DNA of 32,000 bases, taken from positions 2,130,001-2,162,000 of the forward strand of contig NC_008312.1 of the NCBI RefSeq assembly GCF_000014265.1, written 5' to 3'. This stretch comes from Trichodesmium erythraeum IMS101. Lineage in GTDB: Bacteria; Cyanobacteriota; Cyanobacteriia; Cyanobacteriales; Microcoleaceae. Under the pieces are notes generated by a model. It was not told the origin of the DNA. It searched no databases and saw nothing but the letters and a program-made list of their open reading frames with translations. Below, piece after piece: positions 6,791 through 32,000 of this stretch. The position numbers and the translations under genes are program-made. Within the stretch, counting starts at the first letter, position 1. Every line of letters begins with the position of its first letter.

Positions 6791-8167
6791 CGGGACTTTA
6801 GCAAATTTCAAGCCCAAACAAACCCTAAACTCTCTTTATGAGCGGTAAATACGTCGATGTTTTCATCTAACCACTCAACAAAACGATAAGATATTGCGGT
6901 ACGAAATGCTTCTAAAGTATCAGTAAACGTATTTAATGGTTTGTTAGCCCAACGCCTTCTTATACCTCCTGTTAACTGATGCCAGATAATAAATGTATAA
7001 GCACAAAATACTAAAATAAAATGCCTTTTAAGGCTGATTTTATCTCTGACTTGATATTCTCTTAATCCTAACCATCCTTTGGCTTCCCTGTAGAAAACTT
7101 CCACCCAATTTCTTTGAGAATAAGTAGAATATATCCACTCAGGAGTTACATATTTGTCTTCTCTATTAGTGATATAATAGTTAATATCAGTGGCCTCAGA
7201 AAAACTTTTAGCATTCATAACGATAGCTATAGTTTTTTGACCTGACATCCTAGATATTTCTACTTCTAATGTAGCTACCCAAACTTCTCTAGCATTTTTT
7301 GTACTTAGTTGAACTAAGTTGAAAGCTTTCTGAGGTATACTTTCTGCCAGCTTGTCTAATCTAATTTCCTCTTTAATGTCATCTTGTTTTTTAATGATGA
7401 CTTTTCGATTTTTAGCTAATCCTCCTATATAAGTTAAACTTCTTTTCTCTAGTTGATTTAAGAATGATGTATTGTTACCATAGCCAAATTTCAATTAACA
7501 CAATTTCTGGTTGGTGTCCTCTGGACAAACATTGATCTACTAGAGACATTGCACTCGTCTGGTTTCTTGACAAATTCTGGGTCTTTTTTTCCTTTTGGAA
7601 AAGAATCAGCTTTCTGATACAAAGCTATGTCTAAAGGTAGACTTTTAACTCCATCATAAAGATGAGTTGTCACCACGACTACACCATTATCTGTTTTTCC
7701 TATTTCTCCTATATATTGCCGCCCTACTCCTGCAGTAAAATTACCACTTTTTCTGTGGCCTGAATCGTCTATAATTAAAGCAATAGGATCGAGAAGGTTT
7801 TGTTTGGCGACGTTCCCACATTACTTGAAGACGACGCTCATTCACAGCATCTACAGACCAATTTGCTCGAACTAGAAAATGCCGTAATTTGTGGTACGTG
7901 TGACCTACAGTGTTGTTGGCAATTTGAGACAAGTTTTTTCGATCGCTTTCTCAAGAGTAATCCTCCTATATATTCCCTAAACCCTGTTTTTTGGGCTTTT
8001 GTTTTAAAGACATTGTTAAAGCGATCGCACCATCGATGGAAACAAGAGGGCATGGCCACTGAAGTTGTTTCTTTCATCAAACTTTTCCCAGGCCAGTAAT
8101 TAACGTAAAATACATATCAGGTATACATTATACCCTTTTTTTTTACTATTTTTTCACTAAAGTCCCG
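6791..8167 (-). mobile_element. IS701-like (IS4-superfamily) insertion sequence with a frameshifted transposase, 4-bp TSD CTAA
   Basis: Ends cgggactttag (6791-) and ctaaagtcccg (-8167) are inverted repeats. CTAA occurs at 6787-6790 and 8168-8171. ORFs 6808..7494, 7491..7676, 7741..7932 and 7838..8080 are pieces of one transposase (AQKTGFREYIGGLL ... FYREAKGWLGLREYQVRDKISLKRHFILVFCAYTF). Confidence 0.75.
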
Positions 8168-8242
8168 CTAAGTGTTGATGAACTAGAAAAAAATTACTGA
8201 ATTACCCATGACCCAATAGAAGGAACAAGATACCAAATCATT

Positions 8243-9392
8243 AGACATATCCAAGAATCTATAACCCAGTCATAGCAATAAAAACAGGCGAATTAGACTC
8301 GAAGCAAAAAATTGCCCTAAGAAGGAATTAATGGAGGTTTGAAGGGATAAAATCTAATTTCGGCATAAAACTATGGCTCATTCTAACGTTAACTACCTCT
8401 CCAGATTTGGAGGGTTCTATTATTTCTAAAATTAGGGAACCAATTCTCAAACGAACTAATCCACAAACAGTTAATAAGACCGATTTATATCAATTTTTAT
8501 GCAAGCGAAATCTTTCTTTAACCACAAAAAATACTTTTACAACTCGAATTAAATGCTCTACAAAAATTCGATTAGATGATAAAGCTTTATTTTCTTCAAT
8601 TTGATTTTCTGTCAATTTTCCCTTCTTGGGTTTTTTATGGGGAGTTGTAATTTGAGTTTCTCCAATGTAAGCTTTATCACCACTAAAAGTTTGGTTTGTC
8701 TTGAATTTATTTAAAGTTTGGCGACAGATTTTAATATCACTCATTGGTCCAGGTTTTCCAATTACTACATCAATAACATCTTCAGCTTTTGGTAAGATAA
8801 TAAATTGACTTTTTCGAGTATTTCTTTGGATGTTTTCCTGAATAATATTGTTTTTGTTCTTGATAGTCAGAAGGTCTTTCAATTGGTTGTTCAGCAATGT
8901 ATACAATTAATTCATAATCGGTTAACAGTTCAAGAATGCTCTCTTCTTCTTGAAACTTTTTTACTTGTTCTAACAAGCTTGGTGGTAACTCTCCTTCACA
9001 AAGTTTTTGCCAATATGTAAATATATTATGAGCCGTCGACTCACTTACTTGAAAGATAAGTCCTAAAAGTTGAAAACTTATATTATGTCTTAGATAAACT
9101 AACATGAGAACAATTTGTTCTAGAAATGATAATGATCGGATTATTCCCACTTCCTGGTTGATTAATTCTGATTTTTGTTTTTTCAATTTCTTCTTAATTT
9201 TTCTGATTGAGTAATTTTCTCTGGTCTATTAATTGTTCTAGTTGCTTGTAGTCGATTCCTAATAATCTTTTTGTCTGTTTAGGATATTTCTGAATATAGC
9301 CCCAAGTATAACTCTCCATCTGTTGTTTTAAAAATTTATTGTGAAATTTATTATACCATCTTTTTGGATTTGATTCAATTATGGAGATGTCT
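8243..9392 (-). mobile_element. IS5-family (DDE_Tnp_4-type) insertion sequence, transposase split into 3 ORFs, 3-bp TSD ATT
   Basis: Ends agacatatccaagaat (8243-) and ...attatggagatgtct (-9392). ATT occurs at 8240-8242 and 9393-9395. ORFs 9194..9424, 8782..9186 and 8490..8906 join into HTH + DDE (YYSGK..., DKAYIGE, NRIFVEHLIRVVKVF...RFR). Confidence 0.8.
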
Positions 9393-10518: not shown

Positions 10519-13318
10519 GATAAAATACTCACGGGGTGACAAGCAGCTCGAAACTATTGAAAGATAGTGGTTTTCCGGATATTCACTCTGTCAAAAATTG
10601 ACTTTTTTTCTGAGAATGATAATTGTTCTTTTTAAGATCTGGGTTAGGGATTAACTCACATTACCATTTTTGTGTCCACCTTTGTGGTAGCGACAAATCA
10701 CATTATATGGTAACAAAAGTCAGTCCATTTATATAAATAGACCGACCCCAATGGATTTTTTTTCATTATCTGAGTCAGATTTTCAATAATCTTTGACTGA
10801 AGGTCAATTCCAAACTTGAAAAATTTTAGTTTGGTTATTGACTGTTCACAAAACTGTTGAAATAGAAAGACTAGCTGCCTGTTTTCCTTTACCAATTAAA
10901 TATGAGAGTCGCCGGAAACATATACAAAAGACATCTCCAAAAATACTCAAACGCTTATCCTAACTATCTTTAGTGGTGCTATCGCTACTTATGAAGATAG
11001 TTAATTTGTACAGTTTTATGGGCATCAGAGATACTTCGTGTTACTAATTCAAATATTTATTGTACTTTAATTTATTATTTTTATCTCAGCTTTTGATGGT
11101 TTATACTAATATAAAAGAGCCAATTCTTAGTCGCACTAAACCACATATTGTTAAGATTACTTTTTGATAATTATTATCTTTTAATCTGAATCTTTCTCTA
11201 GCAATTCTAAATATTTTAATTAATCTTATTATATGTTCTACAAATATTCTCTTTCTGGCTTTTTCTTGATTTTCTTCTTTGATTTCTAGCGGCATTTCTT
11301 TTTTTCTTGGTTTCTTTTTTGGTGTGGTAGTTCTTTCTATTCCTTCATAAGCTTTATCTCCTTAAAATTTTTGTTTTTTATCAAATTTATCCTGTTGTTT
11401 TCTTAATATCTTTACCTCACTTACTGGACCTTTTTCTCCTACTATTACATCTACTATTTCTGTTCCTTTTGGTGTCGTTATTATTTGATTTTTAAAAGTA
11501 TGATTTTTCTTTTTTCATATTTGATATTTTTCTTGGTCTTTATATTCACTTGGTCTTTCTCTACTTTGTTCTGTACTATCTACAATTAATTCTAATTCTG
11601 TTAATATCTCCTTTACCCATTCCAATTCATTTTCTTTTTTTTTACTTGTTCTAATAAACTTGCTGGCAGTAATTCTCTGAAAATATCTATCCAGTAATGA
11701 AAAATATTATTAGCACTTGATTCACTTATACCAAAGTTAATTCCTAATGTTTGAAAACTTGGTATTTGATGTAAATAAAATAACGTTAAAATTATTTCTT
11801 CTTCCTTTGTTAAATTCTTTTTTCTGACTCCACCTGCTTTAATTAGTCTTTTTTCTGTTTTGGCGATCGCCTCCTTTTTCTCTGATTCTATTATTTGGGC
11901 CTTTGCTATTAATTTTATTAGCTGTTCATAAGTAATGCCAATAATTCTTTTTGTTTCTTTTGGATGATTATAAATATATTCTAAAGTTGGATTCATTTGG
12001 GAGACTTCATACATAAATGGTTTTGATAATTTTACCTTATTTTTTATTTTGGAGATGTCTAAAGATTTTTAACATTATATTTTTGAGCTTTCCCTTGTTG
12101 TGGTTTCCGATGATAATTATGATTTTTAGTCCATAATTTCCCGATGGTAGTCAATTAATTTTTACTATAGATAAGACGCAATGGAAAGATAGTAATATCT
12201 TTGTTATTTCTGTCAGATGTAAAAAACGAGTATTACCTATTTATTGGCTAGTTTTGAATAAAAAAGGCTCTAGTAATTTGGCATAACAAAAATGACTTAT
12301 TAAACTAGTTTTACGGTCATTAAAAAAATATAAGTTTTTATTTATTGCAGATAGATAATTCTATGGTGTAGAGTTATCATACTGGCTAAAAAAGCTAAAA
12401 TTACCTCAAAAAATTTATTTTTTTTCAGGCAAAAAATGAATACTGACTATAAATAAAACGGTTAAAAGTACTATTAATTCACTAATTTAGCCGTATATCC
12501 GGGAAATTCAATATTTTTAAGTAACATTAATATTACTCATAAAAATAATTTAGGTATTTTAATTTAGCTGCCTATTGGAGAAGAAAATATAAAAATAAAA
12601 TGGATAAATAACCTTGGTACTTGTTGACAAATATTGAAAAGATAAAATTATCAAAAATTATCGATCGAGAATGTTTATTGAAGCTATGTTGTCTAGTTGT
12701 AAGAAAGGAAAATATAATCTAGAAGTTAGTCAGGCTAATATACAACGTTTTACTAATTTAATTGTATTAGTAGCCATTGCTTACACTGCTGAATTTTATC
12801 ATGGTAATTATATCAAAAAATTAGGATATCAAAGATATATTTGTCGATAAAAAAAACAGGGCGAAGAGACAGAAAAAATAGTAATTTTTGGGTAGGTATG
12901 TATGGTGAATTATAGGTACTTGCTGGGGATTATTTAGTTTATATTGTTCAACAGATAATAAAGCTTAGTTCTCAAAAAAAGTCTGATTATCAAAGGTAAT
13001 TAAAAGCTCTGTCAATGTTAGATAATATCTAATTACTTACAGTCAATGTCTAGCAATTCATCTGATCATTAAAAAAAAGTCAATTGATTTACATGAATGT
13101 GATGTAATTTTATTATTGAATAATAAATTAACCTAATTTCAGTGATGTGAATTAGCTTTAGCGGAGGATGGTGGCGGCAGCTATACCGCTAACCTACATC
13201 CTAAAAAGAATAATTATTATTCTCAAAAAAAACGTCAATTTTTGACGGATTAAATATCTGGAGAAGCACTATCTATAAATGGTTTTAAGCTGCTTTTAAC
13301 CCCGTGAGGGTAAAATGT
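10519..13318 (+). mobile_element. IS4-family element with ~100-bp terminal inverted repeats, transposase decayed and interrupted
   Basis: 10519-10618 (ggataaaatactcacggggtgacaagcagctcgaaactattgaaagatagtgg...gtcaaaaattgac) is the near-perfect reverse complement of 13222-13318. Frames read ERLAACFPLPIKYESRRKHIQK | (insert) | IFN...IDKTQWKDSNIFVISV..KKRVLPIYWLVLNKKGSSNL ... with many stops. Confidence 0.7.
10929..12060 (-). mobile_element. Second IS5-family (DDE_Tnp_4-type) insertion sequence, decayed, 3-bp TSD AAA
   Basis: Ends agacatctccaaaaat (10929-) and ...ttttggagatgtct (-12060). AAA occurs at 10926-10928 and 12061-12063. ORFs 11613..12014 (HTH part) and 11101..11295 (RIFVEHIIRLIKIFRIARERFRL) are related to the 8243-9392 element. 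Confidence 0.8.
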
Positions 13319-21479: not shown

Positions 21480-24209
21480 CTATTGAGGATAATATTGAGC
21501 TAAAAACTTCTCAGCCTCAGAGCGATCGCTCACCTTCCCATCCAAAGTCGCAGCCAAAATATCATCCAACATCAACTTAAACTGACGCCCCGGCTTATAC
21601 CCCATCAATTTTAAATCATTTCCATTAAAAACAGGTTTAACATTTGCCCACTGAGTCAAATATTGCCAAATTTGGCGTCGCATCCAACGGTCACATTGCA
21701 CAATAATCAAAATCAACATTCCTAAATCATATTCCCTCAACAACCACACCACCTGACTCGGAGTATCACACTTTGGCAAATTCTCCATAACCATAACTTT
21801 TGCCAACTCCAACTCCTCCAACCTCTTCACACTATCCACAGACAACTGTAAATTTTTTCCAACCAAACTCCGATACCCAGACTCTAAACTAACTATCAAA
21901 ACCTCTAAGCGCATTTGCCAATGAGACAATTTCTTGTCAGGATCAAAACCTTGTAAACACCTATCAAGTAGACACACCTGTCGCCATAAGTTCCTATCTA
22001 ACACCAAGGTGCGATGAATACAACGCAACGCTCCCAAATTTCCTAATAACCTTAAAGCAGGTTTCCAGTAGGGAGCTTGCAAAATATATTTCAACTCACT
22101 TTTGAGTCGAGTTTCTAAAGCCGGCGCTCTTCTATTCTTTTCTCCCTTTTTAACATTTTCGCGGTCATATACTCCACTATTAATTGCATAACGAATATAT
22201 TCCTCTGTTTTTGACTCGATCTCAAAACCCAATCTTACCGCAAACCTGACTGCCCGATAAATACGAGTCGGGTCTTCAATAAAACTATTAGCGTGTAATA
22301 CCCGAATTTGTTTCTGTTGCAAATCTAATAACCCACCAAAAAAATCAAGTAATTCTCCAGTGCCTGGTTTAGTAAGCCGTGCTGCTAAAGCATTAATAGT
22401 AAAATCTCGACGATATAGATCTTGGCGAATTGAACTTACCTCAACTTCTGGGTTAGCTGCTGGATAGGGATAAAATTCTGTACGAGCAGTAGCAATATCT
22501 ATCCAAAGGGAGTCTAAAACTAAATCATGGTGCCAGAGAAGAGCAGCAGTTTGAAATTGACCATGAATTTCTAAACGTGCTGTTGGGTAAATTTTTTGCA
22601 GTGCTTTTCCCAAGTTTACCGCTGGAGCATTAGCTACTGACTTAGAGCGGCAAGTATCTACAACTAAGTCTATATCTGTTAATAATAGAGTTTCGTCAAA
22701 TTCTGATAACAGTAAATCTCTGACTCCTCCTCCGATCAGGTATAGTTGCCAACCTCGTTTTTCTGCTAACTCAGCAACACAACTGAGAAGTTGCCATAGT
22801 TGGGGTGCGAGACGTTCTTGTAGAAGTTCGGCAACTGATTTACAAGTTTCACCAGGAATGCAACCTAGTTGTTGATATTGGGGACGTTGTTGTTGATGCA
22901 ATTCCCGTAAAACGTCGGTGCGGGTAACTATTCCGACTAAGGAATTATTTTCTAAGACAGGTAACCGCCCGATATCGTAAGTAACCATTAACCTTTCAAT
23001 TTCTGGGAGATTTGTTTCTGGGGAAATAGTTTTAAGTTGGGGTGTCATGTAACCTTTAACTGGAGCATGGCTAAAACCATGATGGAGAGCAATGTCGATA
23101 TCTCGCCGAGAAATAATTCCGACTAATTTTCCAGATGAGTCTACTACTGATAAACCAGAATGGTTATAGCGTAGTAGTATTCGGTGAGCTTCTTCTATGG
23201 ATGTCTCTGGAGGAATAGTCCGAACTGGAGATGACATTAAATCTTTAGCAGTCGGTGGGTGAGGAATTTGATTTTTGAGTTGGTCTACGAGTTTTTCTAA
23301 TGTTGCTTGGGGGTTGGTGTCTCGGCGACTAACTGCTGCTGCTCGGCTATGACCACCACCCCCTAGAGGTTGGAATAGTTGGTTGAAGTTGGTTTCTGGG
23401 ATGCGCGATCGCCCGATGATATTTAGGCTTTTTTCTGTTGTGTTTTTGAGGGAGTGGGTATGAGCTAGTAAGAGAGCATCTATTTCTGTGAGGTCAATTA
23501 AGCTAGAAGCTAGACTGGATAAACCACGAACATGTTGATCAGTGTTTAATAGTATCCATCCTATTTGATAGGTTCTCACGGTGGAACGTTGTAAGTTTTC
23601 TAGAGCTAGTTTCAATAAATCTTGGAGTTGGGGTGATAGGCCTGGTTCTACATATTCGCCGATGACGGATAAACTTGCCCCTTGCTGCATTAACCATGCT
23701 AAAGCTGTTGCGTCTCGTGGTGTTGTATTGTCAAAAGTTAGTGAACCAGTATCAAGATGAATACCAAGAGCCATAATTGTTGCTTCTGCTGGAGTTAAGA
23801 TCGGGGAAGAATTATTTTTTAGAGTCTGAAGTTTTTCTACTATTAGGGTTGTACTGGCTCCAACTGCTTCTATATAAGTTTGGGTGGCTGGAATGTCGGT
23901 TTGAGTTTCACAGTGATGGTCGTAGATGACAATTTCTGATAGGTGGGGTAAGTCTAACCATTCGGCGGTTTTTCCAAGTCGGGAGCGTGTTTGGGTATCT
24001 ACTATATATATAGATCTGATTTTTTCTGGGTTGACGGAGCGGCGCTCGATGATGGCAAATTCGTCTCGATGGAGGGCCAGGAATTCTTTGACGGTGGGGT
24101 GGCAACCGCCAGTTAGTAGGAGGCGACTACCTGGGTGGAGGTGGGTGAGTCCGACGGCGGCGCCGAGACCGTCAAAGTCTGCTGTTGTGTGGCATAGAAT
24201 TAGGTCCAT
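21480..24209 (-). CDS. Multidomain DHH/DHHA1 phosphoesterase - CBS pair - PolyA-polymerase/CCA-adding nucleotidyltransferase family protein
   Basis: Intact 909-aa ORF. HTTADFDGLGA and IYDHH (DHH), GGGGH (DHHA1), two CBS repeats (MSSPVRTI...GLSVVD, LPVLENNSLVGIVTRTDVL), then GGGVRDLLL...DIDLVV and RRDFTINALA (pol-beta nucleotidyltransferase head). Confidence 0.9.
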   Translation of the reverse strand: MDLILCHTTADFDGLGAAVGLTHLHPGSRLLLTGGCHPTVKEFLALHRDEFAIIERRSVNPEKIRSIYIVDTQTRSRLGKTAEWLDLPHLSEIVIYDHHCETQTDIPATQTYIEAVGASTTLIVEKLQTLKNNSSPILTPAEATIMALGIHLDTGSLTFDNTTPRDATALAWLMQQGASLSVIGEYVEPGLSPQLQDLLKLALENLQRSTVRTYQIGWILLNTDQHVRGLSSLASSLIDLTEIDALLLAHTHSLKNTTEKSLNIIGRSRIPETNFNQLFQPLGGGGHSRAAAVSRRDTNPQATLEKLVDQLKNQIPHPPTAKDLMSSPVRTIPPETSIEEAHRILLRYNHSGLSVVDSSGKLVGIISRRDIDIALHHGFSHAPVKGYMTPQLKTISPETNLPEIERLMVTYDIGRLPVLENNSLVGIVTRTDVLRELHQQQRPQYQQLGCIPGETCKSVAELLQERLAPQLWQLLSCVAELAEKRGWQLYLIGGGVRDLLLSEFDETLLLTDIDLVVDTCRSKSVANAPAVNLGKALQKIYPTARLEIHGQFQTAALLWHHDLVLDSLWIDIATARTEFYPYPAANPEVEVSSIRQDLYRRDFTINALAARLTKPGTGELLDFFGGLLDLQQKQIRVLHANSFIEDPTRIYRAVRFAVRLGFEIESKTEEYIRYAINSGVYDRENVKKGEKNRRAPALETRLKSELKYILQAPYWKPALRLLGNLGALRCIHRTLVLDRNLWRQVCLLDRCLQGFDPDKKLSHWQMRLEVLIVSLESGYRSLVGKNLQLSVDSVKRLEELELAKVMVMENLPKCDTPSQVVWLLREYDLGMLILIIVQCDRWMRRQIWQYLTQWANVKPVFNGNDLKLMGYKPGRQFKLMLDDILAATLDGKVSDRSEAEKFLAQYYPQ

Positions 24210-24492
24210 TTCTGGGAAGTTAAATATTTGAATTTAAGATTAGGTCAGGACTGATGCAAAGGATCTAGTTGTGGTTCGGTATCTGAGTTAATTATTCAAA
24301 ATACACTACATATAGGGGTACTGGATAAGTCCTATGGGTAATAAAAAAGTATTTTATTTCCTTAATTGTATTATATTCAGGATTTATGAAGACGAAACAA
24401 AAATGAAACAGAATTTTTTGGTTATTGGCCATCTAAGGTAGGTTTTACTTGGCGATCGCTTCTGTTAGTTATTTTTGAATGTGTTATACTAG

Positions 24493-24657
24493 GTAGAGGG
24501 TAAGAAGTTATCGTAAAAAAACATTTACTTGAAAGACTGAGAGAATTACAGGAATTGGTTTACAGCACTTATAGTTCTTTGGAGAGAGTTTAATACCTGA
24601 TTATTGCTGTCAGCTTTAGTTAGCAATGGTTACTCCCAGAACTTCCCACTGTCTAGT
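24493..24657. mobile_element. Second copy of the MITE-like element seen at 707-880
   Basis: aagttatcgtaaaaaaac...atagttctttggagagagtttaat...tcccagaacttcccactgtctag aligns with 723-872. The left boundary is approximate. Confidence 0.5.
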
Positions 24658-24780
24658 AAGAATAAGTATTGAGGAAAAACCCCGGTTTCTGGGTTTGCCT
24701 GGGTAAGTCCACCCAAAGAAACCAGGTTTCTAGAGTAAGTCCTTGTTTTTAATAAATCTTCATTGAACCAGACAAAACTT

Positions 24781-25371
24781 ATGATCGCTCAACCCCAAGA
24801 TTATCAAAAAATTACCCTAGAAGAATACCTAGAATGGGAAGCTCAACAGGAATTTCGCCATGAATATGTAGATGGTGAAATTTTAGCTATGGCTTGAGCA
24901 AGTATTCCTCATAATGATATTGCGATTAACTTTTGTACAGCTCTCGTACCTCATCTCCGTCAAAAAGGATGTTGAGTTAATATGTCGGATGTGAAAGTTC
25001 GCGATAGTAAAAGTGATCGTTATTTCTATCCAAATTTAGTTATTTCTTGTAATACTGAAGATTTAAAGTCCCGTCAGTTTATCGAACATCCTACAGTAAT
25101 TTTTGAAGTTCTTTCCCCCAGTACAGAAAAATACGATCGCGGCAATAAGTTTAAATATTATGGTCAAATTTCCAGTTTGCCAGAATATGTTTTAGTAGAC
25201 TCAGAATCAATATCTGTAGAAGTTTTTCAACGCGGCGAGGGAAATTTTTGGCATTATTGCGAATATATAGAAGGTGAGTCAATTACATTATCTAGTATTG
25301 AGTTTACTTCTGCTATTGAAGTTTTATATGCAGGAGTTAACTTGGAAACTGATACTGTCCAGGGAGAATAG
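24781..25371 (+). pseudogene. Uma2-family (DUF820) endonuclease with two in-frame TGA stops
   Basis: ATG 24781 gives MIAQPQDYQKITLEEYLEWEAQQEFRHEYVDGEILAMA. TGA at 24895-24897. Then ASIPHNDIAINFCTALVPHLRQKGC, TGA at 24973-24975, then VNMSDVKV... All in one frame. The track reports only the last third (24982..25371). Confidence 0.75.
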
Positions 25372-25550
25372 AAAGAATGGCCATTATTTGGTCGAGTATT
25401 AATTAAACTATAACGTTATAGTTTTTAGATTTTAGATAAAATAGATAGGGTAGCGATCGCCTAATTTCATTTTAGTTGAGTATTAATTCAACCATTGAAC
25501 TATTGACATTTTAGATAAAGTAAGTTTCAAAGTAGTTTCAATGAGTTCTC

Positions 25551-27032
25551 TCAACCTTTTTTCCGAAATATTGCTAATTCTATTGTAGTCAAAAAAGCTA
25601 ATAAAAAGCGGGCGGAAACTTCCGCTGCATATTGACGAAATTGGTCACTTTTATCATCATCAGCATAATCTTGAACTCCCTTAACAATAATGATGGGAAT
25701 TTCCTCAATTTCTGCTACTGCACCAATAGCTGCACCTTCCATTTCTACTCCTAATATTTTCCGTTGTAATTTTTCGATACGTTGGAAAAGTTGGGGGTCT
25801 TTTTGTACTTTACTTGTAGTAGCAATTACCCCTGTATGAATTTGAGAATTTAAGGGGTCTTTGTAATGTTGGTATTCTAAATATTCTATTCGGTCATTCT
25901 TAATTTCTTTCTGAGCTTTTTCAGTTAATTCCAAGGAGTCTATTTTTAATAATTCTTTTTCTTTTAATTGTTGAATTACTTTTCTCCAATCTGGGCATTC
26001 TGTTGGCCTTTCTGGGTGCTGGTCAGGACGTAAATATTTGTCTGGTTGTTGTTGAAAATCATAGAGTTTGTGGAGTAACCAACGTTCTTGATGATAGTCA
26101 GATTTTGGTCTAGGAATTTGAATAGTATTTAGCCAATCTTGGGGAAATTCTTGAATCATAAATTCCCATTGGCGTTTCAAGTTATAAGTGCGAATATCAT
26201 GGAAGATTTCTTCAGTACGAATTTGTTTATTACCTATTGATTCGTAATGAGTAACAAGTTTACCATAGTCAAATTTAAAGACTCGATTTGCAACAATTAC
26301 ATCACCTAAAAAAGTCTCTTTTTTATTCCCTGCACAAACTCCGGTCATTGCTAAACAACGAGGTTTTAATTCTGAAATAAGTCGAGTGGCTAGATTATTA
26401 GTGTAGTTTTCTCCCATTTCTACAGGACGAGCCGCTACTATATTTAATTGAGTACCGTTTTTATGGTTGAAAGTAGTTTTGTAGTAGGAATAATTGGAAC
26501 TGTCTTTCAATTCTTGCCAACTCTTTCCAGATTGATTATCACAGTTTTTCAGAGCGTTTAATTCATCTTTTAGGGCTGTAATAATTAGAATATCAATAGT
26601 AGGTGTTTCATGAGGTATTTCTATTTTGAATTCTGGTTTTAATTCTTGGGTTTTGAATTCTGCTTTTAATTCTTGGATTTTGATTTTACCGATATTAATA
26701 ATTTTCCGAGCAAACTTTATATCTGTATTCTCTAAGTTATATCTTTCTGGTTGCTTCAAAAGATAATCTAACAAAGCTATTAAAGGATGATAATCTAATC
26801 TTTGACTAGAAACTCGATAGTCTTTAAATTTGGAGACTAAAATAGTAATAAATTCATAAATATTTAAGTTAAAATCAAGACCAGCGATAAAATATTGAGC
26901 AAATCCAGCATTTTTCAAAATAGCTTTTCTTCCTGCTATACCATCAATATTTATCAAAATATTTTCCAATAATCTCTCTATTTTAATCAAATCGTCCTGT
27001 GATATATCTGAGAATATACGGGTGTTTGGCAT
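25551..27032 (-). CDS. Adaptor-like N-terminal domain + PNP/MTAN-fold nucleosidase (phosphorylase superfamily) with a large insert
   Basis: Intact 493-aa ORF. Residues about 146 to the end show the nucleoside phosphorylase fold pattern: IDILIITALKDE, CLAMTGVCAG, GVEMEGAAIG (nt 25734-25751), IIIVKGVQDYAD (DYAD at nt 25659-25670). Residues about 1-125 are homologous to the N-terminus of the neighbouring 321-aa protein. Confidence 0.85.
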   Translation of the reverse strand: MPNTRIFSDISQDDLIKIERLLENILINIDGIAGRKAILKNAGFAQYFIAGLDFNLNIYEFITILVSKFKDYRVSSQRLDYHPLIALLDYLLKQPERYNLENTDIKFARKIINIGKIKIQELKAEFKTQELKPEFKIEIPHETPTIDILIITALKDELNALKNCDNQSGKSWQELKDSSNYSYYKTTFNHKNGTQLNIVAARPVEMGENYTNNLATRLISELKPRCLAMTGVCAGNKKETFLGDVIVANRVFKFDYGKLVTHYESIGNKQIRTEEIFHDIRTYNLKRQWEFMIQEFPQDWLNTIQIPRPKSDYHQERWLLHKLYDFQQQPDKYLRPDQHPERPTECPDWRKVIQQLKEKELLKIDSLELTEKAQKEIKNDRIEYLEYQHYKDPLNSQIHTGVIATTSKVQKDPQLFQRIEKLQRKILGVEMEGAAIGAVAEIEEIPIIIVKGVQDYADDDKSDQFRQYAAEVSARFLLAFLTTIELAIFRKKG

Positions 27033-27108
27033 TTGACTTTTCTTCCATTATTGATGTTTTAAATTTTAGCAGCTATCTACAAAATAAATTGTTGACCTAA
27101 GAAGTATA

Positions 27109-28074
27109 TTAAGGTGTTAAAGTCGTTTCAATGACTTCTCTCAACCTTGTCCATACTACTTCTCCCTTAAATTTTTCCCAGAATGATGAAGGTTGGTCAT
27201 AAAAATAAAGTATTTTTTCATCTAAACAATAAATAACAGGAACTTCGTACCATAATAAATCTAGATTTTGATCGAAAGGATTTTCTTGACGTATTTTAAT
27301 TTTAGTTTCTTTGTCTAAGTTTTTAACCACAGCTATAGCAAAACAAATATTACAAGGTACCCTAGCATTTAAAATTTGTGTGCCAACAGATGAAGTAGCT
27401 TTATCTTTTCCATATTCTAGGCATTGAGTAGAATACTGTCTTAAACTTTTTGTATTTATAGAGGGAAAATAATCGATGATAAAAAACGCATCTCCTCTCA
27501 TATTAAATGCATCGAAATGAAGTTCAAAATCAGTGATTTTTGCTACACGCTCAAATTCAAACTTTCTATCTTTACTTAGAACGTTATTTTGTATATCTAA
27601 AGCACCTTGATTTTTGAGATTTTTCTCAATTTTATTCAAGTAAATATCTAAATTTTGAGTATTACGTTTTATTGTTTCAGGAGATTGATTTTGCAGATAT
27701 ATTTTAATTTGTAAATCTCCCCTTTTCCGAAACGTTGCTAAATATTCAATATCTCGATCATCTAAATGATAAAATTTTTCTCTAGGTTGATTAATTACAT
27801 AGTCTATAATGAATAACAGTGGATGATAATAAGGATTTTGTCGAGAGATTCTATAACTTTTTAAGTCAGCAACTAATATAGTTATAAATTGCTGAGGAGG
27901 TAAATTAAAATCTCGGCCATTTATAAAATAGTCATCTATTCCCGCTAACTGTAAAAATGCTCGCCTTCCAGAAATAGAATCAAATTGCTGAAATAATCTT
28001 TGGAAAATTAATTCCAGTTGTGTAATGTTATCTCGGTTTAAAATAGAAAATATTATTGCTTCAGTTGAACTCAT
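27109..28074 (-). CDS. Adaptor-like N-terminal domain + uncharacterised ~170-aa C-terminal domain
   Basis: Intact 321-aa ORF, 76 bp upstream of and co-directional with 25551..27032. The N-terminal ~110 aa is about 50% identical to that protein over 66 aligned residues. No motif in the C-terminal part that I can assign. Confidence 0.8.
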   Translation of the reverse strand: MSSTEAIIFSILNRDNITQLELIFQRLFQQFDSISGRRAFLQLAGIDDYFINGRDFNLPPQQFITILVADLKSYRISRQNPYYHPLLFIIDYVINQPREKFYHLDDRDIEYLATFRKRGDLQIKIYLQNQSPETIKRNTQNLDIYLNKIEKNLKNQGALDIQNNVLSKDRKFEFERVAKITDFELHFDAFNMRGDAFFIIDYFPSINTKSLRQYSTQCLEYGKDKATSSVGTQILNARVPCNICFAIAVVKNLDKETKIKIRQENPFDQNLDLLWYEVPVIYCLDEKILYFYDQPSSFWEKFKGEVVWTRLREVIETTLTP

Positions 28075-28140
28075 TATTTTCTCCTTAATTAGGGTATTAA
28101 TTATCTTCTAAATCAAGCTCTGTAAATTAGAGAGTTGAGA

Positions 28141-28320
28141 GATTGACTCTGGGATTGTTTTGACATCCTCTCCTGCCTAAAGCCGAGGAGATTCTTATCT
28201 ATCAATCAAACAGATTAAGCTGCTTGAAAGACTCAAAGCGGGTTAGCATTTCATCACAATTAGCTGGCTTTTTACGGCAAGTCTTACCTTTGCTCAATGC
28301 TCGTTTTTGTTCAGTCTCCG
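28141..28320 (-). ncRNA. Predicted omega-RNA (reRNA) of TnpB, with the guide read from the flank
   Basis: By analogy with characterised TnpB systems, the scaffold spans the 3' end of tnpB plus the right end (to 28161). The guide would be the adjacent flank, minus-strand 28160->28141 = aacaatcccagagtcaatct. The 5' extent is a guess and there is no transcript evidence. Confidence 0.35.
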
Positions 28321-29575
28321 ACTGACCGTCGGCGACTATATTGAAAAGAGATAATTGTACAGGATTTTCTAATACTTTAGTTTCAATTACTTCAACCTTG
28401 GTTCTCAGTTGAACAACTTCTAAAATATTTACAGCAGCATTAACATCACGGTCATGGTGTGTGCCACATTTCAAACAATTCCACTCTCTAACATTTAATT
28501 CCTTTTTACCTCCACGAAACCCACAATGAGAGCATTTTTGACTCGTAGGTTCCCATCTGTTAATAACTCTAAACTCACGACCATATTTTTGACATTTAGT
28601 TTCTAATAATGTCCTAAACATTCTCCATCCTAAATCAGAAATAGCCTTAGCTAGTTTTCTGTTTTTAACCATACCAGAAACATTTAAGTCTTCTAATACT
28701 ATTGTGTCGTATTCGCGAATTAACTTAGTGGATAGTTGATGAAGAAAATCAGTTCTAATGTCTGTGATTTTAGCATGAAGTTTAGCTACCCTTAATTTAG
28801 CTTTTTCTCTACGCTTACTACCTGGTATTTTCTGAGCAAGCTGGCGTTGAAACTTAGCTAATTTTTTGAGATTTTTCTTAAGTGGTTTAGGAGCTTCAAA
28901 TTTCTGACCATTATTCAATGTAGCAAAAGTAGAAATTCCCAAATCAATTCCAATAGAATTATCAGTTTTGGGTAATGTTTCAGCAGATGTTTCTATTACA
29001 AAACTCAGAAAATATCTATTAGCTGAATCCTTAATTATTGTGACTGATGTAGGTTCAATAGGTAAGGGTCTTGACCAAGCAACTTTTATTTTACCTATTT
29101 TGGCTAAATATACCTTATCTTGACTTAGCTTAAACCCTATTTTTGTAAACCTAGCAGTCTGTTTTGACTTGCGCTTCTTGAATTTAGGAGATTTAATTTT
29201 CATTCCTTTACGCTTACCTGTTGCTGAGTTAAAAAAGTTTTGATAAGCTTGATGTAAATCGTTTAAGGATTGTTGCAATGGAACTACGGATATTTCGGTT
29301 AGCCAACTTCTCTCAATTGTCTTTTTAGCTTGAGTAATAAAGACTTTTTGAAGTTCGGAATTAGTTGGCTTTTTCTTAGTTGATTTAAATTCTTGAATAC
29401 AATAGGCTAACCCATCATTCCAAACTACTCTTGTACATCCAAATAATTTAGCTAAATTAATTTTTTGTATAAGGTTTGGATAGCACCTATATTTATATCT
29501 TAGTTTCAATTTTTTGAGTCCTATCAATTATTTACACTAAATATTAACAGCGTAGCTCTTTGAGATTTATATTAT
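28161..29575 (-). mobile_element. IS200/IS605-family element carrying tnpB only (IS1341-like, non-autonomous)
   Basis: The right end terminates ...ggatgTCAA (plus-strand ttgacatcc at 28161-28169) with a subterminal hairpin. It shares 14 nt with the orphan end at 1683. The left boundary is inferred at 29575/29576, where homology of the flank to 27684-27740 stops right after GTCAAT (minus-strand reading). No tnpA present. Confidence 0.75.
28202..29527 (-). CDS. tnpB: TnpB RNA-guided endonuclease (OrfB_IS605 family), apparently intact
   Basis: 441-aa ORF with YKYRCYPN at the N-terminus. RuvC triad context: IGIDLGIS (D), IVLEDLNVSGM (E), HDRDVNAAVNI (D). Zinc finger CSHCG...CLKCG. The start is uncertain: TTG 29527 or TTG 29509. 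Confidence 0.9.
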   Translation of the reverse strand: MIGLKKLKLRYKYRCYPNLIQKINLAKLFGCTRVVWNDGLAYCIQEFKSTKKKPTNSELQKVFITQAKKTIERSWLTEISVVPLQQSLNDLHQAYQNFFNSATGKRKGMKIKSPKFKKRKSKQTARFTKIGFKLSQDKVYLAKIGKIKVAWSRPLPIEPTSVTIIKDSANRYFLSFVIETSAETLPKTDNSIGIDLGISTFATLNNGQKFEAPKPLKKNLKKLAKFQRQLAQKIPGSKRREKAKLRVAKLHAKITDIRTDFLHQLSTKLIREYDTIVLEDLNVSGMVKNRKLAKAISDLGWRMFRTLLETKCQKYGREFRVINRWEPTSQKCSHCGFRGGKKELNVREWNCLKCGTHHDRDVNAAVNILEVVQLRTKVEVIETKVLENPVQLSLFNIVADGQSETEQKRALSKGKTCRKKPANCDEMLTRFESFKQLNLFD

Positions 29576-29600
29576 ATTGACTTTGCAGATATTTTTTAAT

Positions 29601-30512
29601 TTATAAGTCTCCTTTTTTCCGAAATCTTGCTAATTCTATTGTAGTCAAAAAAGCTAATAAAAAGCGGGCGGAAACTTCCGCTGCATATTGACGAAATTTA
29701 TCACTTTTATCATAATCAGCATAATCTTGAACTCCCTTGACAATAATTATGGGAATTTCCTCAATTTCTGCTACTGCACCAATAGCTGCACCTTCCATTT
29801 CTACTCCTAATATTTTCCGTTGTAATTTTTCGATACGTTGGAAAAGTTGGGGGTCTTTTTGTACTTTATTTGTAGTAGCAATTACCCCTGTATGAATTTG
29901 TGGATATGATGGGTCTTTATAGCGTTGTTCTTCTAAATATTCTAGTCGTTCATTGTTAATTTCTTTCTGAGCTTTTTCGGTTAATTCCAAGGAGTCTGTT
30001 TTTAATAATTCTTTTTCTCTTAATTGTTGAATTACTTTTCTCTAATCTGGGCATTCTGTTGGTCTTTCTGGGTGCTGGTCAGGACGTGAATATTTGTATG
30101 GTTGTTGTTTAAAATCATAGAGTTTGTGGAGTAACCAACGTTCTTGATGATAGTCAGATTTTGGTCTAGGAGTTTGAATAGTATTTAGCCAATCTTGGGG
30201 AAATTCTTGAATGATAAATTCCCATTGGCGTTTCAAGTTATAAGTGCGAATATCATGGAATATTTCTTCAGTAAAAATTTGTTTATCACCTATTGATTCG
30301 TAATGAGTAACAAGTTTACCATAGTCAAATTTAAAGACTCGATTTGCAACAATTACATCACCTAAAAAAGTCTTTTTTTTATTACCTGCACAAACTCCGG
30401 TCATTGCTAAACAACGAGGTTTTAATTCTGAAATAAGTCGAGTGACTAGATTATTAGTGTAGTTTTCTCCCATTTCTACAGGACGAGCTGCTGCTATATT
30501 TAATCGCGTACC
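29601..30512 (-). pseudogene. 5'-truncated, nonsense-bearing paralogue of the nucleosidase gene 25551..27032
   Basis: ORFs 30042..30473 and 29601..29990 are about 93% identical in protein to the C-terminal two-thirds of the 493-aa protein. TGG->TAG at 30043-30045 (ECPD*RKVIQQ versus ECPDWRKVIQQ). Homology starts abruptly at about 30512. The adaptor domain and the first part of the PNP fold are missing. Confidence 0.85.
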
Positions 30513-32000
30513 ATATATCTAAGTTTTGATAATAAATCTATATTTATTACATTATCAATTAAACTCTTTATATTAACTTCATTATAAGGATGATTCTCAC
30601 AGGTAGTTTTTAGTCTACCATTACGAATCCATTCTTTTAATTTTTCAAGTTTATAAAAATGTGGATTCTGGCTATTTTTACAAGCAGCACAAGTACAAGG
30701 AAATAAGTGATTATATTTGAGTCGATTATTATAGGAACTGTGAATTTTATCTAATAGGTAAGTTACGAGAGTCATTAAAGCCCGTTTTTGTCGTCCAGAA
30801 ACCCTAATTTTTATTTCTCTTCTGTCGTAATATTCAATTACCTCTGCTCTGGTTTCATTTTGCTTGATAATAACTCCCCTTTTCCAAACATATTTCTGTT
30901 GTTCAATATCTCGGTGCATATCTACAATAAACTGAGTGATAATTCCTCTGGGCATAAATTTGTAGGTGTAACGTAAAATCAAATTGTTATTTTCATCCCA
31001 GTCATATTCTGGTTGATTTTCTGTTAAAAGTTGAGGGGCAATATAGGTCTGAGAATTACCAAGAATTTTATAACATAGTTTAAATCTAATCATTAACTGG
31101 AGTAGTTCATCGCGCATATCCACATATTTTTCTTCATTCCAGATATTGGTTAAATCATCTTTGGTGAATTTGCCGAAGTTATTATAAACTGTCGGATTAT
31201 CTAAGATTTTATAAACTGCCGCTATTCCCCATTCTGGTTTGAGAATAACTGTTTTATTTAACAGTGGGTTATCCTGAAAATGAAGACAAATTCCTAAGTC
31301 ATGTAAATAGCGACTTAACTGTAATTTATACTCCAATTTTGTCAAGCCATTTTGTTTACAAATAGATAAATATTCTTCTAGACTAATATAGTTACGGGAG
31401 TCTAATTCTAAGATTTCCCGGACTTGTTTCCAAGTTTTAGGTAAACTACTGCCAATATGGGGTAATTCACTAATATGATGTTCGATTTCTCTGATAATTT
31501 CTTCTAAACCGCGATTAGTTTCAAGGTTGGTAGCTAAGATTTCTTTAATGTTAGTAAATTGCCCTTGCAATCCCCGTTGATTAATTTCTCGTTGCCGTTC
31601 ATGTTTCTCATTTTTCACAATTAATAAGGGGCTATTATCGCTTAATAATTCTACTACATTGAGCCAATAATAAAAGTCTGTATCTTCTTTGCGAGTATCA
31701 ACGACAAGGATATATAGAGAGCGTTTTGTTAAGAAAAATTGGTGGGTAGTGTGATAAATTTCTTGTCCGCCAAAATCCCAAATATTTATTTGAAAGTCAT
31801 TTTGGTTTTTTGTCTTAAAGTTGTACTGATAAACTTCAATTCCTTTGGTTGTATCTTCATCTTTGAGTTGATAGTTTGGGTTGATAATTTTATTAGCTAA
31901 AGCTGTTTTACCAGCTCCAGCTTCTCCAACAATTAGTAATTTAGCTTCACAGATATAATCTATTCCTTTTTCTGGAGGAAACTCTGCCAAAAACTTTTTA
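30500..32000 (-). CDS. Roc-COR (ROCO-type) GTPase, partial: N-terminal part lies beyond the window edge
   Basis: P-loop GEAGAGKT (31904-31927), switch II DFGGQ (31763-31777), then about 300 aa of COR-like sequence (LPKTW..VR..L, YLHDLGICLHF, ILKPEW, APQLL). The reading frame stays open from 31990 to base 32000 (..KKFLAEFPPEKG), so the track's M at 31990 is a TTG inside the ORF. Confidence 0.8.
   Translation of the reverse strand, partial: KKFLAEFPPEKGIDYICEAKLLIVGEAGAGKTALANKIINPNYQLKDEDTTKGIEVYQYNFKTKNQNDFQINIWDFGGQEIYHTTHQFFLTKRSLYILVVDTRKEDTDFYYWLNVVELLSDNSPLLIVKNEKHERQREINQRGLQGQFTNIKEILATNLETNRGLEEIIREIEHHISELPHIGSSLPKTWKQVREILELDSRNYISLEEYLSICKQNGLTKLEYKLQLSRYLHDLGICLHFQDNPLLNKTVILKPEWGIAAVYKILDNPTVYNNFGKFTKDDLTNIWNEEKYVDMRDELLQLMIRFKLCYKILGNSQTYIAPQLLTENQPEYDWDENNNLILRYTYKFMPRGIITQFIVDMHRDIEQQKYVWKRGVIIKQNETRAEVIEYYDRREIKIRVSGRQKRALMTLVTYLLDKIHSSYNNRLKYNHLFPCTCAACKNSQNPHFYKLEKLKEWIRNGRLKTTCENHPYNEVNIKSLIDNVINIDLLSKLRYMVRD

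Follow-up and report, generated by a model that had tools for sequence, protein, structure and literature searches.

Which signalling NTPase, if any, is served by two neighbouring Trichodesmium erythraeum IMS101 genes that share an N-terminal module and lie beside a Roc-COR GTPase gene? The window, that is the whole 32,000-nucleotide stretch of DNA analysed, has Tery_1423 to Tery_1428 as its gene content (Table 1). A first-pass annotation had made the Roc-COR protein the conserved partner of the two genes in a defence locus. The genes that it listed are real: an ORF check places all of them on the minus strand, and Pfam matches and exact matches to IMS101 proteins agree with it. The adaptor module, the immune-type nucleosidase and the linkage to an NTPase also stood, whereas the role given to Roc-COR did not. 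We rather read the locus, with a probability of about 0.7, as the downstream end of an iSTAND2-type MoxR–vWA ‘ternary’ conflict system, predicted to act against invaders or by programmed cell death. Systems of this kind were catalogued computationally in 2020–2021 (Kaur et al., 2020, PMC7159879; Kaur et al., 2021, PMC8195603).

Table 1. Features of the locus; numbered genes are given in coding-strand order and ‘exact match’ denotes identity with the IMS101 protein named.
Order	Feature	Protein	Position	Strand	Evidence
1	PNP (359 aa) + C-terminal adaptor ‘A’		beyond window end		
2	Adaptor A + iSTAND2 fusion (357 aa)	WP_011611104.1	beyond window end		
3	MoxR AAA+ ATPase		beyond window end		
4	vWA protein		beyond window end		
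5	vWA-L-Roc-COR, Tery_1428	ABG50724.1	30500..32000 within window	-	Pfam, Kaur 2021 source data
	Roc		~31607-31942	-	Pfam, 92.8 bits
	COR-A		~31025-31441	-	Pfam, 158 bits
	COR-B		~30551-30988	-	Pfam, 141 bits
	Stop codon		30500-30502	-	
6	PNP relic		29601..30512	-	Pfam, alignment to Tery_1423
	PNP fragments		30042-30473 (143 aa), 29601-29990 (129 aa)	-	Pfam PNP_UDP_1 (both)
	Direct repeat D2		29576..29633 (58 nt)	-	86% identity to 27684-27741
7	tnpB insertion		28202..29527	-	Pfam, NCBIfam
8	EAD8a-X, Tery_1424 (321 aa)	ABG50720.1	27109..28074	-	Pfam, exact match
	EAD8a	residues 17-94	~27793-28026	-	Pfam EAD8, 44.6 bits
	X domain	residues 141-321	27112-27654	-	AlphaFold model
9	EAD8b-PNP, Tery_1423 (493 aa)	ABG50719.1	25551..27032	-	Pfam, exact match
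	EAD8b	residues 12-101	~26730-26999	-	Pfam EAD8, 59.4 bits (cut-off 27)
	PNP domain	residues 148-481	~25590-26591	-	PNP_UDP_1, 67.6 bits
	Truncated Uma2-family gene	129 aa	24982..25371	+	Pfam Uma2

Directly past the window end lie four extra genes, for a PNP with a second adaptor, a protein with the inactive STAND module iSTAND2, an AAA+ ATPase of the MoxR type and a vWA protein. The source data of Kaur et al. (2021, PMC8195603) list the iSTAND2 protein as ‘??+iSTAND2 -> MoxR’, and the published iSTAND2 template consists of a third component, MoxR, vWA and then a separate gene for vWA-L plus an effector. The C-terminus of the 359-residue PNP matches the N-terminus of the iSTAND2 protein (E of 1e-22 to 1e-30), and the two probably form a second adaptor pair. 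The iSTAND2 protein is 71% identical between IMS101 and strain 21-75, compared with 96–99% for its neighbours, and has a dN/dS of 0.86; we infer a fast-evolving, predicted sensor. The vWA protein reaches 23.5 bits against Pfam vWA, under the cut-off of 26.4, and Pfam matches neither iSTAND2 nor vWA-L, both of which were assigned from the Kaur 2021 source data and gene position. The conserved NTPase is the MoxR ATPase with its vWA partner. The wet-lab support found in the literature for threat sensing by MoxR–vWA concerns a different, β-propeller subclass, and none was found for iSTAND2 or EAD-coupled systems.

Tery_1428 joins this core to the window. It comprises 748 residues in total (the length being taken from near-identical contigs), of which the window covers the 3′ two-thirds, residues ~250–748, and its reading frame continues past the window end. 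The Roc domain contains both G1 (GEAGAGKT) and G3 (DFGGQ) motifs, and Roc, COR-A and COR-B are 60–85% identical to cyanobacterial LRR-Roc-COR proteins. The first-pass annotation had placed a sensor in the unseen N-terminus. We reject this candidate: residues 1–250 are a vWA-L linker domain, since the source data of Kaur et al. (2021, PMC8195603) list ABG50724.1 as ‘vWA-L+AP-GTPase+COR’ and the region is homologous to vWA-L proteins (71–82% identity to the N-termini of an Okeania 924-aa protein and a JGI protein, and ~97% to P0036 of strain 21-75). None of the other Roc-COR homologues compared extends over this region. An 8-nt overlap between the start of Tery_1428 (ATG) and the vWA stop codon is an operon signal. 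At the other end, the protein stops only 16 residues beyond COR-B, and a domain search found no EAD8, no LRR and no C-terminal effector in it.

Seven related loci have EAD8 genes next to vWA and vWA-L genes. The vWA/vWA-L genes stand beside EAD8/X/PNP, in the same slot, in T. erythraeum 21-75, Okeania SIO3B5, a JGI metagenome, Calothrix MO_167.B12, Mastigocoleus and an uncultured Calothrix. The expected recurrent linkage to an NTPase is borne out, but with MoxR and vWA; among the related loci compared, Roc-COR stands at this position in the IMS101-type allele only. Here strain 21-75 encodes vWA-L-LRR-EAD8a-EAD8b and Okeania encodes vWA-L-PNP-EAD8-X, so that strains have exchanged the C-terminal half of their vWA-L gene. 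The Roc-COR part is a strain-specific, swapped-in module and not the conserved partner of the two EAD8 genes. The 21-75 protein P0036 carries copies 90% identical to EAD8a and 85.5% identical to EAD8b, predicted to be their cognate docking copies. Because Roc-COR, without EAD8, replaces the EAD8-bearing vWA-L half of relatives, the IMS101 core protein has lost its docking site, and coupling of the core to EAD8 effectors is therefore not encoded at this locus now. With a PNP pseudogene and an IS also in the cluster, the ternary system may be crippled in IMS101. Okeania SIO2B3 and one MAG carry X-PNP genes without MoxR–vWA in the available DNA, and so the EAD8a-X/EAD8b-PNP pair could work alone.

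The module of about 110 residues shared by the two proteins had been taken for an effector-associated adaptor, and it is Pfam EAD8 (effector-associated domain 8). EAD8a and EAD8b are 39% identical over 117 aa, and AlphaFold models EAD8 as a confident helical domain; the models for Tery_1424 have pLDDT values of 84.9 and 87.3. In Tery_1423 it precedes a PNP/MTAN-fold domain with an insert of ~100 aa, which retains ITALKDE (151–157) and the previously noted GVEMEG (428–433) and QDYAD (454–458) motifs. A housekeeping MTAN was considered and rejected (77 bits against the NCBIfam equivalog cut-off of 169). In PADLOC the protein matches PDC-M60C (5.7e-41) and ‘Effector PN-superfamily’ (7.9e-29), and the partner domains of close PNP relatives are Cap17-like_N, NB-ARC, NACHT, TIR, EAD1, EAD5 and bDLD3. 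These matches place the domain in the clade of Cap17-type immune ATP nucleosidases, with that activity predicted, in keeping with the nucleosidase effector proposed beforehand. In Tery_1424, EAD8a is followed by a helical linker and an α/β domain of ~180 aa, ‘X’, previously called unassignable. No Pfam family covers X, its family in a homologue search is small and Foldseek returned weak PD-(D/E)xK nuclease matches only, so that its modelled fold weakly resembles that of restriction endonucleases.

Between Tery_1428 and the EAD8 genes lie a PNP relic and an insertion. The relic, correctly described beforehand as a truncated, nonsense-bearing paralogue, is a gapless 902-nt copy with 95.5% identity to nt 577–1478 of the Tery_1423 gene (residues 193–493), broken by one in-frame TGG-to-TAG change (TAG at 30042–30044). 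It has no EAD8, its PNP domain is missing the first ~45 residues, and its homology starts at ~30512, within the last four codons of Tery_1428 but in a different reading frame. It is what remains of a copy of a Cap17-type PNP effector; in strain 21-75 another remnant takes its place. Repeat D2 spans the stop codon of the relic, corresponds to the linker between EAD8a and X in the 321-aa gene and is truncated by the IS. It records earlier shuffling of modules; in P0003, a relative from a metagenome, EAD8b-PNP-EAD8a-linker lies within one ORF. The 441-aa tnpB product matches Pfam OrfB_IS605, Cas12f1-like_TNB and HTH_OrfB_IS605 as well as NCBIfam guided_TnpB (357 bits; cut-off 100), and the gene belongs to an IS200/IS605-family element. 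No tnpA candidate occurs among ORFs of at least 60 aa in 24000–32000, in agreement with the tnpB-only description, and an Rfam search of the element gave no match. It stands at the identical site in 21-75 and is collinear with L011 at 98.7%. The Uma2 gene, which covers profile positions 59–160 of 172 (relatives have 197–267 aa), is full-length at the equivalent border in Okeania and marks the island's conserved downstream border. Transposase fragments also occur elsewhere in the window.

These remnants could suggest a decaying locus, a recombination scrapyard in which the Roc-COR chimera arose by accident, coupling is lost and Tery_1423 and Tery_1424 are functionless leftovers not yet degraded. 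Besides the relic with its illegitimate out-of-frame junction, the IS, the truncated Uma2 gene and the transposase fragments, this reading accounts for the absence from IMS101 of the 21-75 docking copies and for a vWA-L-Roc-COR architecture unique to the IMS101 lineage, and the few substitutions counted between Trichodesmium strains do not suffice to demonstrate constraint. We nevertheless consider it unlikely. The island keeps nine long ORFs intact despite AT-rich DNA (G+C ~31%), those of 966 nt (Tery_1424) and 1482 nt (Tery_1423) being far beyond chance; the Tery_1428 ORF is open in six assemblies, and the Roc-COR allele is intact in several environmental ones; and the Roc-COR cassette joins in frame at its 5′ end, precisely where the Roc domain begins. 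Both EAD8 genes have a dN/dS of ~0.35 versus their Okeania orthologues, which we count as probable selection, and the X-PNP pairs found elsewhere point the same way. Intactness, from which retained function had been argued, does hold for the nine genes but is a weak argument with the core docking copy missing. It is very improbable that Roc-COR serves as signalling NTPase in a self-contained GTPase system, its COR or N-terminus recruiting the EAD8 proteins and GTP switching releasing the PNP: although the genes are neighbours on one strand, the Roc-COR ORF is intact in the six assemblies, the catalogue of AP-GTPase conflict systems includes bacterial LRR-Roc-COR proteins that end in EADs (ABD75797.1 has EAD8) and a relative, P0246, is LRR-Roc-COR-EAD7, the C-terminus described above bears neither EAD8 nor LRR, the N-terminus is vWA-L with a start overlapping the vWA gene, EAD8 is listed in 0 of the 120 closest Roc-COR homologues, Roc-COR adjoins EAD8-X/EAD8-PNP orthologues in one of ~10 informative loci, and a pseudogene and an IS stand in between.

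For the MoxR–vWA ternary system, a mechanism may be proposed following Kaur et al. (2020, 2021) and Rousset et al. (2023). In this scheme the rapidly evolving iSTAND2 protein would sense the invader, MoxR and vWA would act as an ATP-dependent threshold device, and the vWA-L protein would carry or recruit effectors. Like EAD8 domains would pair and bring in EAD8b-PNP and EAD8a-X; EAD8b-PNP would then destroy ATP by cleaving off adenine, as judged from what Rousset et al. (bioRxiv 10.1101/2023.01.24.525353) report on enzymes of the PNP clade, and the infected cell of the filament would stop growing or die. In IMS101, the EAD8-docking part of the vWA-L gene has given way to a Roc-COR cassette that seems to derive from an LRR-Roc-COR paralogue, and the EAD8 genes may be either a self-contained pair or dependent on a docking copy elsewhere.

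Several known systems resemble parts of this locus. Like Cap17 and DtcC (CBASS and Detocs; bioRxiv 10.1101/2023.01.24.525353), Tery_1423 combines a PNP/MTAN fold with conserved Glu and Asp motifs, and its closest homologues (50–64% identity) bear a Cap17-like N-terminal domain or STAND/NLR modules; its activation, however, is predicted to occur via the EAD8 adaptor and not a cyclic-nucleotide sensor or receiver domain. Animal CARD, DD and PYD follow the same logic of a small helical adaptor on platform and effectors, like pairing with like, as is predicted for EAD8, although no sequence or fold match between EAD8 and Death domains was detected. Tery_1428 shares Roc, COR-A and COR-B with the AP-GTPase (LRR-Roc-COR) proteins, homologues of DAPK1 and LRRK2, which can carry C-terminal EADs, EAD8 included (Kaur et al., 2021, PMC8195603, Fig. 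6D); unlike them, it has no LRRs, C-terminal effector or EAD, begins with vWA-L and lies inside a MoxR–vWA operon. The earlier statement that no named system has this exact combination is superseded, as the same paper describes Roc-COR with EADs and lists Tery_1428 and the adjacent iSTAND2 gene. The closest likeness is to the iSTAND2 MoxR–vWA systems (PMC8195603; class founded in PMC7159879), which share the gene order (adaptor+iSTAND2, MoxR, vWA, separate vWA-L+effector), extra neighbouring effector genes with cognate EADs, PNP both as adaptor-linked ‘signalling’ enzyme and as effector, and a multicellular cyanobacterial host. The IMS101 locus differs in that its iSTAND2 adaptor is unrecognized (‘??’), no core component bears the EAD8 needed by the two neighbouring effector genes, and Roc-COR holds the effector position, the sole such entry in the accessible part of the Kaur 2021 source-data tables. 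It adds to a computationally known kind of conflict system, with Roc-COR as a swapped-in vWA-L module.

On the minus strand at 25551-32000, an ORF scan and Pfam searches recover every gene that the first-pass annotation had read there (see the table). The 321-aa ORF encodes Tery_1424 of T. erythraeum IMS101 and the 493-aa ORF Tery_1423, both with exactly matching sequences; UniRef names the former 'Effector-associated domain-containing protein'. The N-terminal module shared by the two had been taken for an effector-associated adaptor, and profile searches bear this out: Pfam EAD8 (PF19961) matches the 493-aa protein with 59.4 bits and the 321-aa protein with 44.6 bits (cut-off 27). The domain is N-terminal in both proteins, with helices at residues 14-94 modelled at a pLDDT of around 90, and the two EAD8 types (EAD8a in Tery_1424 and EAD8b in Tery_1423) share a mutual identity of just 39%. 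The tnpB element is of the IS200/IS605 type, with TnpB RuvC and TNB domains (Pfam, NCBIfam); no candidate Y1 transposase (tnpA) adjoins it among the ORFs of at least 60 aa, and Rfam gives no match for it, nor any for the whole window. A promoter and terminator scan stayed at background level (27 observed vs 23.3 expected). Elsewhere in the window, DDE transposase fragments (DDE_Tnp_1, DDE_Tnp_4, HTH_Tnp_4) split across overlapping ORFs at 6808-7494, 8490-9186 and 11613-12014 are decayed IS copies, separated from the island by housekeeping genes (recR, a nanE-like gene, a GAF hybrid histidine kinase and a sulfotransferase). The Uma2-family gene at 24982-25371 is truncated to 129 aa and covers positions 59-160 of the 172 in the profile; its Okeania orthologues, at the same island border, measure 197-267 aa.

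Genes of the island, inside the window and upstream of the GTPase gene
Feature	Position (nt)	Strand	Basis
493-aa ORF (Tery_1423, ABG50719.1)	25551-27032	-	Pfam EAD8 and PNP_UDP_1
321-aa ORF (Tery_1424, ABG50720.1)	27109-28074	-	Pfam EAD8 only
441-aa TnpB ORF	28202-29527	-	three TnpB domains in Pfam
Two PNP fragments	29601-29990, 30042-30473	-	ORFs
Roc-COR ORF, continuing past the window end	30500-31999	-	Pfam Roc, COR-A, COR-B
359-aa PNP (ABG50728.1)	beyond window, upstream of GTPase	same	near-identical contigs
357-aa protein (WP_011611104.1)	beyond window, upstream of GTPase	same	without Pfam match
MoxR-type AAA+ ATPase (ABG50726.1)	beyond window, upstream of GTPase	same	
CoxE-like vWA protein (ABG50725.1)	beyond window, upstream of GTPase	same	

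Past the window end, the sequence was read from six near-identical metagenome contigs and MAGs (L001-L006). At full length the Roc-COR protein (Tery_1428, ABG50724.1) has 748 aa, and its start codon overlaps the stop codon of the vWA gene by 8 nt. The operon-like arrangement of a third component, MoxR, vWA and vWA-L with an effector is present in the near-identical contigs and in orthologous loci, and the accessions WP_011611101 to WP_011611105 form an unbroken run. The domain content is as follows. The MoxR protein, named MoxR family ATPase in the sources, matches Pfam AAA_5 with 42.9 bits (cut-off 22). The putative vWA protein ('VWA containing CoxE family protein' in UniRef) reaches 23.5 bits for VWA_CoxE, under the cut-off of 26.4, and matches NCBIfam SAV_2336_NTERM weakly. 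No Pfam or NCBIfam model matches the 357-aa protein, in which strand-loop motifs, and no GK[ST] P-loop, can be recognized by eye. Kaur et al. (2021; PMC8195603) enter this protein in their source data as '??+iSTAND2 -> MoxR' and Tery_1428 as 'vWA-L+AP-GTPase+COR'; the iSTAND2 assignment used here is taken from that entry. The view that the combination is undescribed is not supported; the Tery_1423 and Tery_1424 accessions and the neighbouring locus tags were not found in the accessible parts of the Kaur 2020/2021 supplements. With these assignments, the IMS101 locus fits, gene for gene, the iSTAND2 MoxR-vWA template of Kaur et al. (2021).

Related islands occupy the same chromosomal slot in other filamentous cyanobacteria, bordered at one end by a 183-aa gene that neighbours DMRL synthase/ycf9 and at the other by Uma2 and a DHH-CBS-PolyA-polymerase gene. 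In Okeania SIO3B5 the order is EAD8x2-X, X, EAD8-PNP, PNP-adaptor A, adaptor A-iSTAND2, MoxR, vWA and a 924-aa vWA-L-PNP-EAD8-X protein (X being the C-terminal domain of about 180 aa in Tery_1424, and adaptor A a second adaptor described below). T. erythraeum 21-75 has the order of IMS101, but its vWA-L gene encodes vWA-L-LRR(5)-EAD8a-EAD8b (protein P0036) and is followed by a PNP remnant. In Calothrix MO_167.B12, vWA is followed by a vWA-L gene for a long TPR protein with EAD8 and then by EAD8-PNP; in Mastigocoleus testarum, vWA is followed by a vWA-L gene for a long TPR protein and then by EAD8-X and EAD8-PNP genes, and a separate STAND-EAD8 protein is encoded upstream of vWA. A neighbourhood tblastn over all loci collected for comparison finds vWA and vWA-L adjoining EAD8/X genes in seven distinct loci, and Roc-COR in one, the IMS101 type. 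On these counts the conserved partner is the MoxR-vWA device and not Roc-COR, whose proposed role as the cognate NTPase is not supported. In three loci X occurs together with PNP or TIR genes, and MoxR-vWA is absent from the DNA available; one of them, Okeania SIO2B3, has the modules in the fusions EAD8-X-PNP and PNP-X. An EAD8-based scan of GTDB genomes returned eight loci, none from Trichodesmium.

How, then, did a Roc-COR protein come to stand at this position? Tery_1428 carries Roc followed by COR-A and COR-B, with the G1 and G3 motifs present, and ends 16 residues past COR-B with no C-terminal effector or EAD; Pfam finds no LRR in the 748 aa, where vWA-L stands instead. The first 250 residues or so have no Pfam match and are covered by no other Roc-COR homologue among 6069 matches, and residues 1-250 recur at 64-97% identity at the N-termini of the post-vWA genes of seven loci, with varied C-terminal domains. 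The window and 21-75 are collinear (98.7%) over both EAD8 genes, the IS and the final 30 or so codons of the PNP relic; upstream of these codons the two diverge. The 5' junction in IMS101 (FLAEFPP followed by EKGIDYICEAKLLIVGE) is in frame and is the exact Roc start of ordinary LRR-Roc-COR proteins, for example the paralogue P0163 (...QQEREKGIDYIYEAKLLIVGE); the 3' junction lies directly past COR-B, out of frame with the truncated PNP relic. The Roc-COR cassette shares 84-85% identity with LRR-Roc-COR paralogues of Trichodesmium. For the order of recombination events behind this allelic swapping, several paths fit. The patches of variation among the assemblies match paralogue sequence, which suggests gene conversion or assembly mixing. 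At 31262-31357, within COR-A, 12 clustered differences separate IMS101 from contig L001, whose version is identical to P0163; gene conversion among Roc-COR paralogues is suggested by this cluster. In annotation, the Roc-COR gene here should be treated as a member of the upstream operon. The unique vWA-L-Roc-COR fusion is a modest novelty.

Under the EAD principle, a core component bears one copy of the adaptor, and effectors encoded nearby bear others (Kaur et al., 2020; PMC7159879). This arrangement is found in 21-75 (vWA-L-LRR-EAD8a-EAD8b), Okeania, Calothrix and Mastigocoleus and is missing at the IMS101 locus, where Pfam finds no EAD8 in the vWA-L-Roc-COR, vWA, MoxR or iSTAND2 proteins. 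The tandem EAD8s of P0036 are 90% identical to the EAD8 of Tery_1424 and 85.5% identical to that of Tery_1423, the pattern expected under the predicted pairing of like with like. Judging from these comparisons, the EAD8 docking copies are lost from the IMS101 platform protein. In the 493-aa gene, the linker between EAD8b and PNP contains a 27-nt tandem duplication (26624-26677, 93% identical) encoding a repeated ELKAEFK/ELKPEFK motif.

The nucleosidase of Tery_1423 had been regarded as an immune-type enzyme, and this assignment holds. PNP_UDP_1 is matched with 67.6 bits, and the motifs ITALKDE, GVEMEG and QDYAD are present, the last two falling on the EME and SDxAD motifs in an alignment to MTAN structures. 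For the MTAN equivalog of NCBIfam it scores 77 bits, far short of the cut-off of 169, and PADLOC effector models match; the domain sides with defence PNPs and not with housekeeping MTAN or DeoD. In its closest relatives the fusion partners of this cassette are Cap17-like_N, NB-ARC, NACHT, TIR, trypsin, the Cap15 receptor domain, pYEATS, ABC-3C CTD2, EAD1, EAD5 and bDLD3. On account of these immune fusions, together with the profile scores, we place it with the defence-associated PNPs, namely the immune ATP nucleosidases of Rousset et al. (bioRxiv 10.1101/2023.01.24.525353), and by analogy it would cleave adenine from ATP or dATP. The Mastigocoleus STAND NTPase (L013:3724-5385) looks active, with the Walker A motif GITGIGKT, and bears a C-terminal EAD8; a Microcoleaceae MAG encodes a protein of this STAND family joined directly to a Cap17-type PNP cassette that is 85% identical to the Tery_1423 PNP (P0012). 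The same effector would thus either dock by way of EAD8 or be part of the NTPase protein itself. A metagenomic variant of 603 aa (P0001) has an internal duplication of about 110 aa within the PNP, which may be an artefact of assembly. Together, the two PNP fragments of the window make up a single 902-nt copy that aligns without gaps to nt 577-1478 of the intact gene, at 95.5% identity, and is broken by one TGG-to-TAG change; the homology starts within the last four Roc-COR codons, in a different reading frame. Among the near-identical assemblies, the pseudogene and the intact 493-aa gene show paired variants exactly 4056 nt apart (window 25643-26328 and 30172-30445; L001-L006 positions 7630-8376 and 11686-12432), reflecting either ongoing gene conversion between the copies or assemblers swapping repeats.

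The X domain of Tery_1424 is modelled with a pLDDT of 87 and a pTM of 0.86 as an alpha-beta-beta-beta-alpha-beta core, and no Pfam model covers it. Foldseek searches of the PDB with the full 321-aa model and with X alone return nothing below E 0.03, and a search of PDB sequences with the X profile gives noise only. Almost all of the weak Foldseek matches are PD-(D/E)xK nucleases (best NucS/EndoMS, E 0.036, TM 0.33); we refrain from naming X a nuclease, as the matches are weak and the conserved residues form no D...(D/E)xK triad. The family is small (144 matches, 72 of them at E <= 1e-10, when 1.84 billion representatives are searched with its profile), and its fusion partners are CHAT, caspase, TIR, trypsin, PNP, EAD1, EAD8, EAD10 and bDLD1. 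A domain without a Pfam family that travels with immune effectors is again a modest novelty. In Okeania and Calothrix the vWA-L protein itself has EAD8-X at its C-terminus; Tery_1424 may therefore be a piece detached from the ancestral core protein and not an effector in its own right.

EAD8 accounts for one of the two adaptor pairs of the island. In the other, adaptor A, the C-terminal 90 or so aa of the 359-aa PNP are homologous to the N-terminal 95 or so aa of the iSTAND2 protein (L001:1536-1820 and 1894-2184), with 43-60% identity and E values of 1e-22 to 1e-30, and Okeania, a JGI metagenome and Calothrix have kept the pair. Pfam gives no match to adaptor A even at E 10, and its profile-profile comparison with EAD8 by hhalign is not significant (probability 9.9%). 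The adaptor on iSTAND2 is marked '??' in Kaur et al. (2021; PMC8195603); the previously unrecognised second pair is a modestly novel element. The iSTAND2 proteins of the IMS101 type and of 21-75 are 71% identical, with dS 0.157 and dN/dS 0.86, between flanking genes that are 96-99% identical; a stretch at L001:2314-2964 and L011:6944-7636 (21-75) is only 60% identical. This divergence fits a fast-evolving sensor and indicates either diversifying selection on the putative sensor or exchange of its alleles. Both EAD8 genes show dN/dS of about 0.35 against their Okeania orthologues; comparisons among Trichodesmium strains, iSTAND2 apart, yield counts too low for interpretation.

By analogy with Kaur et al. 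(2020, 2021; PMC7159879, PMC8195603) and Rousset et al. (2023; bioRxiv 10.1101/2023.01.24.525353), iSTAND2 would sense the invader and adaptor A would recruit the 359-aa PNP to it, possibly making a nucleotide-derived signal; MoxR and vWA would act as an ATP-dependent threshold device with the vWA-L protein as the output platform, to which EAD8 pairing would bring the ATP nucleosidase, resulting in cell arrest or death. The experimental support that we found for threat sensing by MoxR-vWA concerns only the beta-propeller subclass in Actinobacteria. To our knowledge, no iSTAND2- or EAD-type system has been tested experimentally.

Because its platform carries no EAD8, the IMS101 system is therefore rewired, with Roc-COR as a new output, or split, leaving the EAD8a-X/EAD8b-PNP pair on its own, or broken. 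We consider it unlikely that vWA-L-Roc-COR is a working GTPase switch at the MoxR-vWA output alongside an autonomous ATP-depleting EAD8a-X/EAD8b-PNP module with X as trigger or sensor; if true, the fusion would couple two types of immune machinery that are gated by NTPases. The natural alleles, which differ solely in what vWA-L is joined to, be it Roc-COR, LRR-EAD8a-EAD8b or, in Okeania, PNP-EAD8-X, are a ready-made test of whether EAD8 docks effectors onto the core and of what the loss of the docking site does. Programmed cell death collapses Trichodesmium blooms, which makes putative ATP-destroying suicide modules in a Trichodesmium genome ecologically interesting. The IMS101 island is a partly degraded member of a known, predicted class of systems, and MoxR-vWA and EAD systems have been proposed as bacterial precursors of the signalling by adaptors that leads to cell death in animals.
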